This document shows, piece after piece, positions 2,932 through 40,826 of a stretch of DNA of 44,882 nt (its first letter is position 1; every line of letters starts with the position of its first letter). Origin of the DNA: Deltaproteobacteria bacterium (lineage in GTDB: Bacteria; Bdellovibrionota_F; JAHFAK01); assembly GCA_023250585.1 (NCBI GenBank), contig JAHFAK010000004.1, forward strand, positions 1-44,882, in the 5' to 3' direction. The notes below the pieces were generated by a model, which saw nothing but the letters and a program-made list of their open reading frames with translations, was not told the DNA's origin and made no database searches. The position numbers were made by a program, and so were the translations under genes.

Positions 2932-3058
2932 GGTAGTAAGGGAGTAGGTAAGTTCTAAAGAAGTATGTATATCGACGTCGCTTCCATAATACTTTTAAGA
3001 ACAGGAAAGCGCGCTCGATATACATACTTCTTTAGAACTTACCTACTCCCTTACTACC
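2932..3058. repeat. Long hairpin element, family 1, copy 1
   Basis: 44-bp perfect inverted arms 2932-2975/3015-3058 around a 39-nt core whose reverse complement matches copy 2 at 37/39. Confidence 0.95.
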
Positions 3059-22855: not shown

Positions 22856-24805
22856 TCACCTTTTTTTTCTTTCCATGATTGTATCTATATCAGAACGACA
22901 CGTATGATTGAAATTACAAAATGTGCAGTTTTCTCTATTTTTTCCCGGTGTGGGAATAAATTCGCCTTGGATAATTTTTGTATATATATTCCGAATTCGA
23001 TCTTCTAAAGCATTTTTATTGAATGCTTCATTAAATTCAAATCTCATGCGCTTTATTCCCGTTTCATGGAAAAGGTAATGCGCGTCTCCTTGATTACAAA
23101 CCAATCCGCTCGATTCAAAAATTTGATTAACACCATACATATAGAGTGGAATTTGTAAATATTTTCCTTGAGAGAGAGCTGATTCACTCATGGACTGCTT
23201 TCCTGTTTTATAATCAATGATGCGCAAAAGCCCGTTTTTTCTGTCGACGTCAATTCTATCAATGCGTGCTTTAATAAAAATTGTTTCATTTTTGTTCAAC
23301 GGAATTTTGATGAGATTTTTATTCATTGTAGAGATGGGATATTCAAAATACGTTGGGACAAAATATTCATTCTTCATTTCGCTCTCAAGATATGATCTAA
23401 CTTTAGTTTTAATTTCAGTTTGTACATAGAAAATAATTCCAGGAAGTTTGATGAGTAACTCATGTGAGTGGTGTGCAAAGCTTGAAGAAAGCGCTTCATC
23501 TAATAATCCATCGTATTCTTCAATTTTATTGATGTTGAGAGGAAATAAGCCTTTCTCTTTTAAAAGAGAATACAATTTGTATAATACTTCATGCGTAAGC
23601 GTACCAATAAAATGAGCGGGCGGATAATACTCTTTAATATATTTTTCATGAGTATCGATACCAAGAATATAGCGTAAATAAAATCTATACGGACAATTCG
23701 AAAAATCTTCAAGCATGGTGGGGCTAAAGATGAGGTCATATTTTGTTTTTAAAATATCTTTTATATCAATATTTTTTAACAAACCTAAATACTCATTTAC
23801 TGTTTTTTCTTTATACAATTTTTCATAGAAGTTTTTTTGTATGGCATTGAGTGAATGTTGTGAAGAAATTTCGTTGTGTTCCTCAAAGAGTTTTTTTTCT
23901 GTTTCAATGATTCCATTACCTTTTTGTATACCGTGAAAAGGTGTCAATCCTTTGCCCGCTATATCAAACCGCGAGAATGTTATAATTTTAATTAATTCAT
24001 CGTGAGTAATAAGAGACAATAAATCTTCGGTAATTTTTGCATGAACACCTTCTTCATTGAGGCCTGGAATAAAAATTATTTTAAATTGAGAAGCATTCAC
24101 TGAATTAAAATTAACAAGTGAAACTCCTGCTTTTTGTTCTTGGTTTATAGGCAGAGTTTTTAAGCTCTCTTCAAACGTAGCAAAGAATTCGTCTCGTGTT
24201 CCGATGGTTTCAAGCGATATCATGGTTTTTAATTGATTTGTTAGGAGCTCACGAGGAGTCATATCTTTGTCATCGTAATGTGATAGAAAAAGAGAAAGAA
24301 AATTGTGATACGTATCTTTGTCTTTAAAGAGGTTTAATATATCGATATATTTCTTTGTATATTCAATCATTATACTCATTTCATGATGGCTATATATATT
24401 CGCATTGCTAATCTGCGTAAGGCCATGCATAAAATCAGCAAGTGTCGTAGCTTTAATTTGTTCGTAGATAGAAAAAATATAGTCTTTGCGAATGGGGTGA
24501 TTTTTAGAAATAATAAACTGCAGTAAATAAAATGGATCTTTATCTCGTACGAACTGAAGAAAAGTGAATAATTTTTTACCTTCTTTAGTATCTATAAAAA
24601 ATCTACCAAAGCTATTAAAATAAGAAATTGTTGTATAATCTAATGTATCACGAATAATAGTATATAAAAGATCTTTTTCGGCTACGATAAGAGCCATTTT
24701 AGAAAATGGGATGAGATATTCTTCGTTGTAAGTCCTTATTTTATTTAGGATTATTTCACTTTCATGCACTGGATCGTAACATGATAAAATCAGTGTATTT
24801 TTCAT
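22856..24805 (-). CDS. PD-(D/E)xK nuclease, AddB/RexB-like C-terminal domain with 4-Cys Fe-S motif
   Basis: SPTMLEDFSNCPYRFY, GTLTHEVL, RIDRID, IIDYKTG, QIPLY, CTFCNFNHTC. Confidence 0.85.
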   Translation of the reverse strand: MKNTLILSCYDPVHESEIILNKIRTYNEEYLIPFSKMALIVAEKDLLYTIIRDTLDYTTISYFNSFGRFFIDTKEGKKLFTFLQFVRDKDPFYLLQFIISKNHPIRKDYIFSIYEQIKATTLADFMHGLTQISNANIYSHHEMSIMIEYTKKYIDILNLFKDKDTYHNFLSLFLSHYDDKDMTPRELLTNQLKTMISLETIGTRDEFFATFEESLKTLPINQEQKAGVSLVNFNSVNASQFKIIFIPGLNEEGVHAKITEDLLSLITHDELIKIITFSRFDIAGKGLTPFHGIQKGNGIIETEKKLFEEHNEISSQHSLNAIQKNFYEKLYKEKTVNEYLGLLKNIDIKDILKTKYDLIFSPTMLEDFSNCPYRFYLRYILGIDTHEKYIKEYYPPAHFIGTLTHEVLYKLYSLLKEKGLFPLNINKIEEYDGLLDEALSSSFAHHSHELLIKLPGIIFYVQTEIKTKVRSYLESEMKNEYFVPTYFEYPISTMNKNLIKIPLNKNETIFIKARIDRIDVDRKNGLLRIIDYKTGKQSMSESALSQGKYLQIPLYMYGVNQIFESSGLVCNQGDAHYLFHETGIKRMRFEFNEAFNKNALEDRIRNIYTKIIQGEFIPTPGKNRENCTFCNFNHTCRSDIDTIMERKKR

Positions 24806-24827
24806 TTTTTTATGATATACTTTAAAG

Positions 24828-24958
24828 TGAAGCAGGAGTGGGCGATATATGTTCTTTTTTAATTGTATATCGATCGCGCTTTCCTGTTCTTAAAATTATT
24901 ATGGAAGCGACGTCGATATACAATTAAAAAAGAACATATATCGCCCACTCCTGCTTCA
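24828..24958. repeat. Long hairpin element, family 1, copy 2
   Basis: 46-bp perfect inverted arms 24828-24873/24913-24958 around a 39-nt core. Confidence 0.95.
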
Positions 24959-24966
24959 AGAGCACT

Positions 24967-26604
24967 ATGAATAAAGTCACGGTAAAGATCAACGGGAAAG
25001 TCGAGAGCATCCCAAAATATACAACGATTTTAGAACTTCTTGAAGAGCAAGGAATTAAGTATTTTCCTCATTGTTATGCTGCTCTTGTTAACAACGAGCT
25101 TGTCAGTTTAAGTTATGTATTACATGCCGATGTAGAAATTAAACTTTTAGACTACACTCATACGCTTGGCGTGTCAGTATATAAACGAAGCGTTTCATTT
25201 TTATTGGCACGAGCACTCTTTGAAATGCAGCGAAATACACGTCTTGCCATTAATCATTCCATGGGAAATGCTTGTTATTATGATCTTTTCACTGATGCCC
25301 CAGTTACTGATGAGTTGTTATCAAACATTGAAAACAAAATGAATGAGATTGCGCGGCGTAATGAGCCTATTAAACGGAAAACTTTTACCGTTGAAAAAGC
25401 TAAGGCATTTTTTACTCAACGCGCGTATACTGATAAAGTAAGGCTTTTAGAGCATATGAATAAAGATGACAAAGTCGGAATTTATTCGTGTGGAAAATTT
25501 TATGATTTAGATTATGGGCCGCTTGTCGCTTCAACCGGCTTTATTACTCACTTCGAACTCAAAACCTATGGACAGGGATTTTTGCTCCTCTTTCCAAATG
25601 AGCAGCATTTCCCTCAAATTGCAGAGCTTCAAGATATGCCTAAAGTTTTTCATGTTTTTCAAGAAAGTAAACGTTGGGGAAAAATTTTACAGGTTAATAA
25701 TGTAGGAAAGCTCAATGAGTTTATTGTTAAAGATGATTATCGAGAATTGATTTATATCTCAGAAGCACTTCATGAAAAAAAGATTGCAGAAATCGCTGAT
25801 AATATTGCTGAGCATAAGAATACGAAACTTGTACTGATTGCGGGGCCTTCGAGCTCAGGAAAAACAACATTCTCACAATGGCTTCGTATCCACTTGCGTG
25901 TTAATGGGCTCCGGCCCGTTGTTTTATCGCTCGATAATTATTACATCGATCGTGATAAGAGTCCTCGAAATCCTGATGGATCCTACAATTTTGAAGCAAT
26001 TGAATGTTTGGATTTAGAGTTCTTTAATGCCAATGTTATTGATCTCTTAAAAGGAAAAGAGGTTGAGCTTCCTAAATATAGTTTTAAAGAGGGAAGGCGA
26101 AAATCAAATGGAACCAAACTACGCATTTTTGAAGATCAATTGCTCATCGTTGAAGGCATTCACGGTTTGAATGAAAAACTAACATTTGCGGTTCCGGCTG
26201 AAGCAAAATATAAAATCTTTATTAGTGCGCTTACGCAGATTACAATTGACGATCACAACCGTATTTCAACAACTGATTCGCGACTTATTCGCCGAATTGT
26301 TCGTGATCATCAATTTAGAGCATACAGTGCGCAAAATACCATTAAAGCGTGGCCAAGTGTGCGTCGTGGGGAAGAGCTTTATATTTTTCCTTTCCAAGAA
26401 GAAGCTGATATTATGTTTAATTCAGCACTTTTGTATGAACTTGCAGTTTTAAAGCCGTATGTTCTTCCTTTGCTTGCAGAAATTAAGCAAGAAAGCGATG
26501 AGTATAGTCACGCTAAACGTCTTATGGATTTTTTGAAACTCTTCAAAGACATTCCTTCCGATGAAGTTCCCAATACATCGTTACTCAAAGAATTTATTGG
26601 GTAA
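24967..26604 (+). CDS. Nucleoside (uridine) kinase fused to ThrRS-like N-terminal domains
   Basis: TGS-like start; IAGPSSSGKTT, SLDNYY, VEGIHGLN, RRIVRD, FNSALLYEL. Confidence 0.88.
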   Translation: MNKVTVKINGKVESIPKYTTILELLEEQGIKYFPHCYAALVNNELVSLSYVLHADVEIKLLDYTHTLGVSVYKRSVSFLLARALFEMQRNTRLAINHSMGNACYYDLFTDAPVTDELLSNIENKMNEIARRNEPIKRKTFTVEKAKAFFTQRAYTDKVRLLEHMNKDDKVGIYSCGKFYDLDYGPLVASTGFITHFELKTYGQGFLLLFPNEQHFPQIAELQDMPKVFHVFQESKRWGKILQVNNVGKLNEFIVKDDYRELIYISEALHEKKIAEIADNIAEHKNTKLVLIAGPSSSGKTTFSQWLRIHLRVNGLRPVVLSLDNYYIDRDKSPRNPDGSYNFEAIECLDLEFFNANVIDLLKGKEVELPKYSFKEGRRKSNGTKLRIFEDQLLIVEGIHGLNEKLTFAVPAEAKYKIFISALTQITIDDHNRISTTDSRLIRRIVRDHQFRAYSAQNTIKAWPSVRRGEELYIFPFQEEADIMFNSALLYELAVLKPYVLPLLAEIKQESDEYSHAKRLMDFLKLFKDIPSDEVPNTSLLKEFIG

Positions 26605-33304: not shown

Positions 33305-34444
33305 TTAAATATATTCACCAGACCATAGATTTTCAATAAATAATTTCCATGAAATAATTTTTATCCCAGCAACGGTGCGAGGCTCTTTTTCTAAACATAC
33401 TAAGACACAATTTTTTACTGGCCCGTCTTCTTTTAAAGCTTTAAGAAAACGAAGATCTCCTTCATGGACACGATCAGAGCCCTTGATTTCAATTGCCAGT
33501 TCTTTATCTCCTAGAATAAAATCAACTTCTTGCCCTGTGCTTGTTCTCCAGAAATAAATAGGCACATCCGGATTTTTATAAGTTATATAAGCTCTAAGTT
33601 CCATTAATATATACTGCTCAAATGATTTACCAAATTCCATAGTTTTTAAAGCAGGTTTTCGTTTTGCCAGATAATTTGTAACTCCAACATCAAACAAATA
33701 AAATTTTTCCGTAGTAATCATTCTCCTATCTTTGGATTTGCCCCATGGCTGAATTCTGAAACCAATATATGTATCTTCGAGAATATCGAAATAAGTTCTT
33801 ACAACCTTATGTGAAACACCTGTGTCCCTTGCAATATTAACATAATTAATCAGTTCGCTTGATGTAATGGCTGCAACTCTTAAAAATTCTGAGAAAGCGG
33901 GCAAATTTTGAATTAATCCCTCTTGTGCTATTTCTTCTTTCAGGTAATCAAAAATATATGCTCTTAAATCTTCAATTGGACTAGGGGACAAAAAATGAGG
34001 TGGCAGCAAACCAGAAATCATGATTTTTTCTAAATCAAATCCTGAAACTTCTACTAAAGAAAGTGGCAACATTACTCTCCGCCAAGCGCGACCACCTAAA
34101 AGGTTAGAATGACCTCTTTTTAATTTTCTTGCACTCGATCCTGTAAGCAAAAATGATATTCCACTGTTTTCAATTAACCAATGCACTTCATCTAAAATTG
34201 CGGGAATTTTTTGAACTTCATCTATGACTATTAATCCTTTATAATCTTGATGTCTTTCTCTTAATAACGAAGGCCGAGAAGCATATTCGGCAAAAACATC
34301 TGTTTTAAGAAAATCAATTAATAGAATATTTTTTAGATTATGATTGATCCAAAAAGTTTTTCCAACTTTACGAGGTCCCCATAAAAAGGCAGATTTATTT
34401 TCTGGAAGATTAAGCTCGAAAAGTCTTTTGATAATTTTACTCAT
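33305..34444 (-). CDS. AAA+ ATPase with DUF4143 (COG1373-type)
   Basis: GPRKVGKT, IDEVQK, LTGSS, KFYLFDVG, FWRT..GQEVDF, IEIK. Confidence 0.9.
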   Translation of the reverse strand: MSKIIKRLFELNLPENKSAFLWGPRKVGKTFWINHNLKNILLIDFLKTDVFAEYASRPSLLRERHQDYKGLIVIDEVQKIPAILDEVHWLIENSGISFLLTGSSARKLKRGHSNLLGGRAWRRVMLPLSLVEVSGFDLEKIMISGLLPPHFLSPSPIEDLRAYIFDYLKEEIAQEGLIQNLPAFSEFLRVAAITSSELINYVNIARDTGVSHKVVRTYFDILEDTYIGFRIQPWGKSKDRRMITTEKFYLFDVGVTNYLAKRKPALKTMEFGKSFEQYILMELRAYITYKNPDVPIYFWRTSTGQEVDFILGDKELAIEIKGSDRVHEGDLRFLKALKEDGPVKNCVLVCLEKEPRTVAGIKIISWKLFIENLWSGEYI

Positions 34445-34449
34445 AAGGT

Positions 34450-34479
34450 AAATTTATCTAGATAAATTTGCTATGTCAA
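34450..34479 (-). promoter_or_regulatory. sigma-70 promoter with overlapping 20-bp palindrome (leaderless)
   Basis: Minus strand TTGACA, 17 nt, TAAATT, 6 nt, ATG; palindrome AAATTTATCTAGATAAATTT at 34450-34469. Confidence 0.7.
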
Positions 34480-34508
34480 GAAATTTATCCGTCGACTTTT
34501 CTAGTATT

Positions 34509-40712: not shown

Positions 40713-40826
40713 ATGAGAGGTTATATATTCTTTTTTTGTTTTATATCGATCGCGCTTACCCCGTTCTTAGTATTTTTATGGAAGCGACGTCGATATAAAA
40801 CAAAAAAAGAATATATAACCTCTCAT
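40713..40826. repeat. Long hairpin element, family 1, copy 3
   Basis: 37-bp perfect inverted arms 40713-40749/40790-40826 around a 40-nt core homologous to copies 1 and 2. Confidence 0.95.

Follow-up and report, generated by a model that had tools for sequence, protein, structure and literature searches.

Integron attC sites are imperfect palindromes of 60-140 bp which lie tightly between a stop codon and the next gene, and they are recognized as folded single strands, in which unpaired bases matter. Their outer boxes are conserved and their middle varies, and they occur in one-directional cassette arrays beside an integrase gene. REPINs, as portrayed in parts of PMC3116915, are hairpins with common compensatory changes, in which conserved repetitive extragenic palindromic (REP) sequences stand inverted at the ends of a variable spacer; the REP families and their transposases are surveyed in PMC3733652. 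Long stem-loop miniature inverted-repeat transposable elements (MITEs), according to passages of PMC3184786, may be co-transcribed and sit in operons, and some carry promoters or alter mRNA decay. We have analyzed a long palindrome at positions 24828-24958 of a 44,882-nt stretch of DNA from a deltaproteobacterium (hereafter the window), which is located between two divergent genes, one for a uridine kinase and the other for a nuclease, and which an earlier note on this DNA had taken for an element that supplies or controls the transcription of both. We find that it belongs to a family of about 70 copies. The reading that we favor, and to which we give a probability of about 0.6, is that it is one copy of a genus-restricted, mobile, non-autonomous foldback repeat with the apex as its recognition element, i.e. 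selfish palindromic DNA of a MITE- or REPIN-like kind. What looked like a bespoke regulatory palindrome becomes one insertion of a repeat family.

The inverted repeat measures 131 bp and consists of two arms of 54 nt each, which are 94% complementary, with 23 nt between them. The arm and open reading frame (ORF) coordinates bear out the earlier description that it fills most of the 161-bp gap between the divergent genes (24806-24966) and that its right arm ends 8 nt before the ATG of the kinase gene. On the other side, 22 nt separate the left arm from the first ATG of the nuclease ORF, and here the minus strand indeed reads TATCAT-AAAAAA-ATG, the nuclease start being taken as the first ATG only. 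When folded as RNA, the element reached -89 kcal/mol, compared with -26.3 ± 3.6 kcal/mol in 200 shuffles (z -17.7), and when folded as DNA it reached -59.3 kcal/mol (z -17.8 compared with shuffles). Three positions in its apex, TCG opposite ACG, are never paired.

The same hairpin is found all over the genome. The 18-mer GGAAGCGACGTCGATATA had 73 matches with up to 2 mismatches in the 2.24-Mb genome, while its reversed control had none. A looser pattern led to 75 core loci, 66 of which are unbroken hairpins of at least 100 nt. The loci are 105-134 nt long, non-coding, and spread over about 50 contigs, the unit being a hairpin of about 115-130 nt; few copies should be hidden by contig breaks, because only 1 of the 328 contig ends adjoins a core half. 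All share an apex of about 55 nt, which reads TATCGA(G/T)CGCGCTT, then a 23-24-nt loop (two main variants), then AAGCGACGTCGATA. This apex is made of two GC-rich boxes, AGCGCGCT (variant TCGCGCT in the copy 24828-24958) and CGACGTCG, around the AT-rich loop. The boxes face each other with a fixed 3-nt mismatch, which is unpaired in 72 of the 75 copies; in the three copies without it, the left box has been converted to the exact complement of the right box.

The stem is constrained in its pairing rather than in its sequence. Over the 75 copies, stem positions 1-37 are Watson-Crick paired in 84-99% of cases, with two to four types of pair at most positions from position 3 on, and pairing is at background level beyond position 39. 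Shifting the partner by one column made pairing drop at most stem positions; it stayed as high in the A/T runs of the inner stem. Two types of copies were distinguished by the form of the inner stem, which is TTCTCAAAAAGTATTTC in the A-type (n = 42) and TTCTTTTTTATTTTC in the B-type (n = 31, including 24828-24958), and 2 further copies were unclassed. The outer stem of the B-type holds 0.1-0.8 bit per position, yet it is 90-100% paired. The ends of B-type copies are not conserved (0.07-0.37 bit beyond the stem), and the outer 14-mers of the 33 non-A-type copies are unique to their own locus. The A-type copies ride in a larger MITE with the terminal repeats GTAAYnnCTCAGTTA, and the same outer 14-mers turn up at as many as 28 loci, a sign of recent bursts.

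The terminal repeats of the A-type carrier are common to a second abundant repeat family, in which they read GTAAYnnCTCAGTTAATGGG. This second family has a different, GC-rich interior with paired GGATCCCGYGGTCAAGCCRCGGGATGAC boxes, and its 78 box matches correspond to roughly 40 elements (e.g. C10:2120-2320, C14:27181-27340, and C117:35721-35830), none of them in the window.

Some explanations of the arms were considered and rejected. Transduction of flanking DNA as the origin of the variable outer stem did not agree with the locus-unique 14-mers (8 extra matches were chance matches inside genes), and copying of the outer stem from the target was not seen in the pairs of filled and empty sites described below. 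A conserved peptide encoded by the arm was discarded as well, since the variants do not agree in frame and 24 of the 75 copies have no ATG. The two loop variants differ by one base, so that no reading frame is shared.

The comparison with related genomes bears on the mobility of the family. The lineage is poorly sampled: besides a single congener, G001 (81% complete, in 250 contigs), there was one further genome from the order and one from the class, and after these the closest Dxs proteins, at most 55% identical, belong to a variety of phyla. For eight junctions a comparison with G001 was possible. Six of them are empty there (five B-type and one A-type), one is filled, and one holds a different hairpin. 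In the congener, tsf and pyrH overlap in TAATG, and the spacers between mnmE and maf, hslU and purA, and atpG and atpD measure 1, 10, and 8 nt; in the present genome, B-type copies bring these gaps to 142, 138, 150, and 144 nt, respectively. The fifth B-type site is the dipeptidase leader (copy 40713-40826), which has no element in the congener; both species keep the AAGGAG in front of the ATG. At the A-type site, pgsA-mutL (copy 2932-3058), the interval is 88 bp in the congener and 251 bp here. Because a precise loss which restored the TAATG overlap is unlikely, we read these differences as insertions in the present lineage. The inserts measure about 136-143 nt, i.e. 20-25 nt beyond the perfect hairpin, and no flank is conserved. 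In four pairs of filled and empty sites no clear direct repeat was seen at the insert, with flanks that are strongly diverged between the two species.

The phoH2/murJ junction holds a B-type copy in the present genome and, in the congener, an unrelated hairpin with a 16-17-bp stem (TAGCGTATAGTGAAGAA...TTCTCTACTATACGCTA) in a 63-nt spacer (L141:3040-3420, G001:C155). The latter may have arisen independently as a terminator-like hairpin, or it may be what is left of an older insertion. The filled site of the congener is a half-copy at a contig start, beside the orthologue of pheS (87.6% identical protein), and in the present genome a full copy lies 7 nt behind the pheS stop codon. The apex at this site is identical between the species in 20 of 20 positions, but with respect to the gene it faces the opposite way, and the outer stems are not the same. 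Taken together, these comparisons indicate that the element is, or was, mobile. The nuclease-kinase junction lies outside the comparison, since the nuclease gene of the congener is cut by a contig start; neither the kinase gene nor rapZ was found in G001, which is 81% complete. We also noted that at three of the five compared B-type sites (tsf, mnmE, and phoH2) the upstream gene ends in TAG here and in TAA in the congener. This difference, recorded for G000:C75:14421-14566 against G001, might bear on the exact integration point.

No relative of the sequence was found outside the genus in genome, metagenome, viral, plasmid, and phage collections. Exact-pattern scans of the genome contig collection and of a viral contig collection gave no match, a scan of metagenome contigs gave two, both of them GC-rich chance matches without a hairpin, and blastn against plasmid and phage collections gave none. 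Forty other genomes had single chance matches only, G001 excepted. The weak matches in G002 were rejected as family members, as they are not palindromes of this kind, and short left-box patterns in G001-G003 did no better than a reversed control. We found no paper on this hairpin family in literature searches that dealt with repeat classes in general and were not aimed at the lineage.

We also looked for the element in the per-run contigs of four metagenome runs of one study. Both arms were entered from the flanks, and no contig skipped the element, although such a contig-based view cannot reveal rare forms and the runs may include the source sample, so that they do not provide independent support. 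The run contigs stopped 30 nt into each arm and none spanned the element, as expected for a repeat in k-mer assemblies, and short contigs joined the copy-specific outer arms of 24828-24958 to the core. For runs X1-X3, contig depth added up over the core (24872-24915 of the window) to about 170-240 times that of the flanks, compared with about 75 copies in the assembly; this depth sums all copies and possibly related organisms, and it is not a copy number. Most of it had G rather than T at position 24896, G being the commoner loop variant.

The position of the copies with respect to genes was determined for 70 of them: 20 were in divergent, 34 in tandem, and 7 in convergent gaps, while 5 were at contig edges and 4 inside a called ORF. 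Since the 61 classed copies follow the share of intergenic bp in each class of gap (31% divergent, 55% tandem, and 14% convergent), divergent promoter regions are not preferred. Where the gap is tandem or convergent, all B-type hairpins but one start 2-25 nt past the upstream stop codon (median ~10 nt), and the gap left beside the hairpin is at most 51 nt in 17 of 19 tandem cases. Gaps of up to 30 nt hold 4.3% of the intergenic bp of element-free tandem pairs, though 61% of the pairs have them. Hugging of stop codons and small leftover gaps indicate that the family lands, or survives, at gene junctions and not anywhere in intergenic DNA. Near-complete filling of the gap is the rule for B-type copies, and the copy 24828-24958 leaves the least room of the seven found in divergent gaps (30 nt, compared with 109-318 nt). 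The genes were called crudely as ORFs with the first start codon taken, so that distances to starts are lower bounds.

Housekeeping operons are bracketed by copies, with one upstream of rpsB and one behind tsf, and one at each end of tmk-holB-PSP1-tatD; the genes between pairs of copies are housekeeping genes. Further copies are found at atpG/atpD, mnmE/maf, hslU/purA, and phoH2/murJ. Some lie within operons (atpG/atpD, tsf/pyrH) and some at operon 3' ends. The orientation of the apex was the same as that of the flanking tandem genes in 17 cases and opposite in 17. Relative to the asymmetric ends of the A-type carrier, the two orientations were counted 21 and 16 times, with 5 of the 42 copies unclassed. 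A link of the apex orientation with the replication strand was not retained: the counts by local GC skew were 29/17 and 9/11, and the odds ratio of ~2 was judged not significant without a formal test.

How the arms are kept complementary can be approached from their mismatches. Among 2775 stem cells, 222 were mismatched (some from indels), with 43 G.T and 47 A.C; on the sense strand of tandem genes the figures were 9 and 10. As G.T mismatches do not exceed A.C, there is no tolerance of G.U of the type seen in RNA. The three copies that hold the left box as the exact complement of the right box show that one arm can be copied from the other. In E. coli, quasipalindromes mutate by template switching, as parts of PMC7202029 report. 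The orientation of the apex, the types of mismatch, and the arm conversion favor upkeep at the DNA level. That the mismatch has survived in 72 of 75 copies and that the apex is identical across species show that something reads the apex, which could be a mobilizing enzyme or a host protein.

Compared with the systems mentioned at the outset, the family resembles REPINs and their RAYT (REP-associated tyrosine transposase) enzymes in that it consists of non-coding hairpins of about 100 nt, present in tens to hundreds per genome, extragenic, and long-lasting in the lineage. As in the portions of PMC3116915 dealing with REPINs, one part is conserved in sequence and the rest is held to length and pairing with compensatory changes. 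It differs from them in that REPINs conserve the ends and vary the middle, whereas here the apex is conserved and the ends vary, and no end carries an unpaired GTAG tag. With the long stem-loop MITEs (ERIC/IRU, Correia/NEMIS, RUP, Nezha, and Chunjie, as characterized in passages of PMC3184786) it has in common a length of 100-170 bp, a non-coding and intergenic nature, and presence or absence between relatives. Other shared traits are the stable RNA or DNA hairpin and the occasional location within operons, with co-transcription, and 42 A-type copies are truly carried by a MITE with terminal inverted repeats. In contrast, the 31 B-type copies have no conserved terminal repeats and no target duplication recognizable in the strongly diverged flanks, the named families having been compared by description only. 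Like attC sites, the copies are imperfect palindromes set tightly between a stop codon and the next gene; unlike them, they are dispersed among housekeeping genes on about 50 contigs, occur in every orientation, and vary in their outer parts (no search for an integrase was made). The flip/flop hairpins of parvoviruses and the inversion of spacers between inverted repeats are similar in outcome only, with an asymmetric centre in both orientations; nothing here speaks for rolling-hairpin replication, and recombination between arms or copies would do the same. The family is set apart from MITEs and REPINs by the conserved apex, the free ends, the B-type copies without terminal repeats, the lack of a linked Y1 transposase, and the siting at gene junctions.

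In the mechanism that we propose, an enzyme acting in trans would recognize the apex, either as double-stranded DNA or as a DNA hairpin, and would move or copy the unit. Complementarity of the arms would be maintained in the DNA itself, through what this enzyme requires, through template-switch correction within the palindrome, or through both, and the apex would be flipped by recombination between arms or between copies. The copy 24828-24958 would have inserted ahead of the kinase gene in a short gap, which it now nearly fills, and it is most likely a passenger. The kinase mRNA would probably start from a promoter upstream of the element and carry the hairpin in its leader, or else a weak site of the right arm would serve as its start. 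As a by-product, the hairpin may affect how the mRNA is processed or translated.

Several observations weigh against this reading. We searched for Y1 transposases (PF01797, Y1_Tnp) and found four loci in the genome, none of them with an element within ~1.5 kb on each side, so that no mobilizing enzyme came to light; other transposase families were not searched. The 3-nt mismatch is kept in 72 of 75 copies, though the rest of the stem is perfect. Blind correction from arm to arm would erase it, so that each copy, or the sources of the copies, must be under selection, and this could just as well point to a host function. In the congener, the proteins of which are only 59-94% identical to those of the present genome, the apex is unchanged, and this also fits purifying selection for a host role. 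Filled sites may break the contigs of G001, so that the share of empty sites is biased upward in this 81% complete genome. The classical MITE mechanism is not applicable to the B-type copies, because they have no conserved ends and no clear target duplication. Finally, the 5' arm of the B-type outer stem is G-rich on both strands (211 G compared with 65 C), with GGAG-like motifs in 21 of the 31 B-type copies and CTCC-like motifs in none, a bias which a constraint on structure alone does not explain. GGAG-N4-9-ATG is found in 13 of the 33 non-A-type copies (31 B-type and 2 unclassed) and in 23 of the 42 A-type copies.

Two further repeats were noticed beside Y1-like sequences. At L115:1678-1765 (G000:C69), a GC-rich 26-nt inverted repeat beginning with TGTAGGGGCGACC adjoins a Y1-transposase-like gene; the pair resembles a GTAG-type REP with its RAYT, and the repeat has no relation to the hairpin family. 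At L116:1247-2103 (G000:C47), a perfect 23-nt inverted repeat (AAAGGTGGGGACCGACATATGAA) flanks 811 bp with a weak Y1_Tnp match, which may be a small insertion sequence.

The near-invariance of the apex in about 70 copies, and its full identity in the congener while the stems drift, would also be accounted for by a host element that acts in cis and is read as DNA. In this case a dimeric protein (a nucleoid organizer, an insulator, or a global regulator) would bind the palindromic boxes of the apex, the long arms would extrude or present the site as a hairpin, and selection would keep the copies at operon boundaries, as in the bracketed rpsB-tsf and tmk-holB-PSP1-tatD operons. Both boxes are 8-bp palindromes and are rare outside the elements: CGACGTCG occurs 67 times inside and 11 times outside (7.6 expected), and AGCGCGCT 44 times inside and 16 times outside (7.6 expected). 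The irrelevance of orientation (17:17) is as expected of a site in double-stranded DNA, and the lack of a G.U bias in the stem mismatches agrees with it. We nevertheless consider this explanation unlikely, since the same conserved genes and junctions function without the element in the congener, the distribution tracks intergenic bp and not any class of genes, an ordinary MITE that has burst recently carries 42 of the copies, and no candidate binding protein was identified. Avoidance of a restriction site was rejected as the cause of the GC-rich palindromes, because the number of GACGTC sites outside the elements was just two-fold below expectation, which is unremarkable.

Another possibility, which is also improbable, is that the family is a hairpin replicator of an undescribed kind. 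Such a replicator would be recognized by its asymmetric apex and be placed a few bases behind stop codons even in essential operons, its insertion being harmless either way. The 5' arm would offer GGAG-N4-9-ATG and the 3' arm CAT...CTCC, and this on both strands, so that ribosomes which terminate there could start anew within the arm and open the stem, and translation of the downstream gene would go on.

An element acting at the RNA level is a rather poor candidate, in spite of the very stable RNA hairpin. In this case the co-transcribed stem of 45-55 bp would serve as an RNase III site, a stabilizer of 3' ends, a terminator made of the hairpin only, or an insulator which uncouples the neighbors. 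B-type copies start 2-25 nt behind stop codons in tandem and convergent gaps, those located between cistrons of an operon must be transcribed, and MITEs such as ERIC modulate mRNA decay, as stated in part of PMC3184786. Yet on the sense strand G.U is not above A.C (9 compared with 10), the conserved apex in both orientations (17:17) would give two different RNA loops, and 20 of the 61 classed copies are between divergent genes. There was no intrinsic terminator in 24600-25200, where no T-run follows the stem and a T-run lies inside the left arm, and a terminator between atpG and atpD or right before the kinase ATG would be harmful. At the gathering threshold, Rfam found nothing in the window except one tRNA. 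At E<=1 it matched just plant and animal microRNA-precursor models, on both strands and below threshold, and these matches reflect generic long stems.

The earlier note had argued that both genes must start within the element or read through it. This holds for the kinase gene, whose start is supported by orthologues in two related genomes that align from residues 2-4 and whose ATG is 8 nt from the right arm, which leaves no room for a promoter. It is not needed for the nuclease gene if its start is mis-called. Residues 1-260 of the nuclease have no homologue besides the protein itself, so that the start at 24805 is a first ATG only; a true start downstream of it would make the divergent region longer than 161 bp, and a promoter-like site is present inside the ORF at 24765-24738 on the minus strand. 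In the gap 24806-24966 we found no sigma-70-like site (-35/-10 with a spacing of 16-18 nt) at threshold, with a consensus which may not be that of the host lineage and makes such scans weak. With the same proviso, the 66 full copies had 7 sites on both strands, compared with 20.1 ± 4.9 in mononucleotide shuffles, and were five-fold poorer than other intergenic DNA (0.11 site per copy compared with 0.51 per 117 bp).

A relaxed scan revealed two TACAAT hexamers which point outward, as mirror images, from the two arms (see Table), and which need the inner-stem variant TTGTATA, carried by few copies. The conserved loop reads TATTAT and CATAAT on opposite strands. Upstream of the element lie two motifs of the extended -10 pattern TGnTAnnnT, which occurs 1.4 times per kb per strand genome-wide. 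One of them, TGATATACT, is a candidate promoter for a kinase transcript that would read through the whole hairpin as its leader. A leader hairpin of -89 kcal/mol at 8 nt from the AUG should hinder initiation, which would favor a start in the right arm. In view of the outward hexamers and the upstream motifs there may be a promoter inside or beside the element, though none of these sites is evidence of function, and the Correia elements of Neisseria carry promoters according to a section of PMC3184786. That the element supplies or controls the transcription of both genes is nonetheless very improbable, because it is an ordinary member of a promoter-poor family with copies in divergent, tandem, and convergent gaps and inside operons, is absent from junctions of the congener, and has an apex that faces either way (17:17), while the candidate extended -10 motifs lie upstream of it, the hexamers depend on a variant of few copies, and, if the nuclease start is mis-called, the nuclease promoter need not touch it. 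For annotators, this means that no promoters or operators should be read into the hairpin without RNA data.

The family also provides a clean natural experiment on how a long palindrome can stay perfect within the chromosome of a bacterium. It offers about 70 copies with an invariant apex and paired stems of free sequence, a mismatch that resists homogenization, a centre that flips, and insertions that split tsf/pyrH and atpG/atpD. If an enzyme that reads the apex were found, it would define a movement of DNA which depends on structure and not on terminal repeats.

Table. Coordinates of the hairpin, its parts, nearby promoter-like motifs, the other family copies of the window, and the flanking genes
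Feature	Position	Strand	Remarks
Whole hairpin element, B-type family copy	24828..24958	.	Inverted repeat, folds, family listing
Left arm	24828..24881	.	Outer ~25 nt copy-specific, G-rich (GGAG); inner part TTCTTTTTTAATTGTATATCGA common to the family
Right arm	24905..24958	.	
Conserved asymmetric apex	24866..24920	+	TATATCGATCGCGCTT, 23-nt AT-rich loop, then AAGCGACGTCGATATA
TACAAT, -10-like hexamer, right arm	24919..24924	+	Weak -35 TTATTA 17 nt away; relaxed scan, 8/12 matches, below threshold
TACAAT, mirror image, left arm	24867-24862	-	Relaxed scan, poor -35
TGATATACT, extended -10-like motif	24813..24821	+	TGnTAnnnT pattern match only; complement holds the TATCAT described in the earlier note
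TGATAAAAT, second extended -10-like motif	24782-24790	+	Pattern match only
Family copy 1, A-type	2932..3058	-	Between mutL and pgsA, within MITE with terminal inverted repeats
Family copy 3, B-type	40713..40826	+	21 nt upstream of dipeptidase ATG, directly before AAGGAG
TGS/SAD-domain and uridine kinase gene, 545 aa	24967..26604	+	Pfam PRK and tRNA_SAD; NCBIfam udk
PD-(D/E)XK (AddB-like) nuclease ORF, 649 aa	22856..24805	-	Start is the first ATG of the ORF

In the product of the kinase gene, the TGS and second-additional domains from the N-terminus of threonyl-tRNA synthetase are joined to a uridine kinase. Equally long orthologues with 51-52% identity are found in the same order and in the same class. 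Elsewhere in the window, positions 34415-34504 form a palindrome without a spacer, with 45-nt arms that are 71% complementary. It is outside the hairpin family and sits between the phosphoenolpyruvate carboxykinase gene and the ORF 33305-34444.

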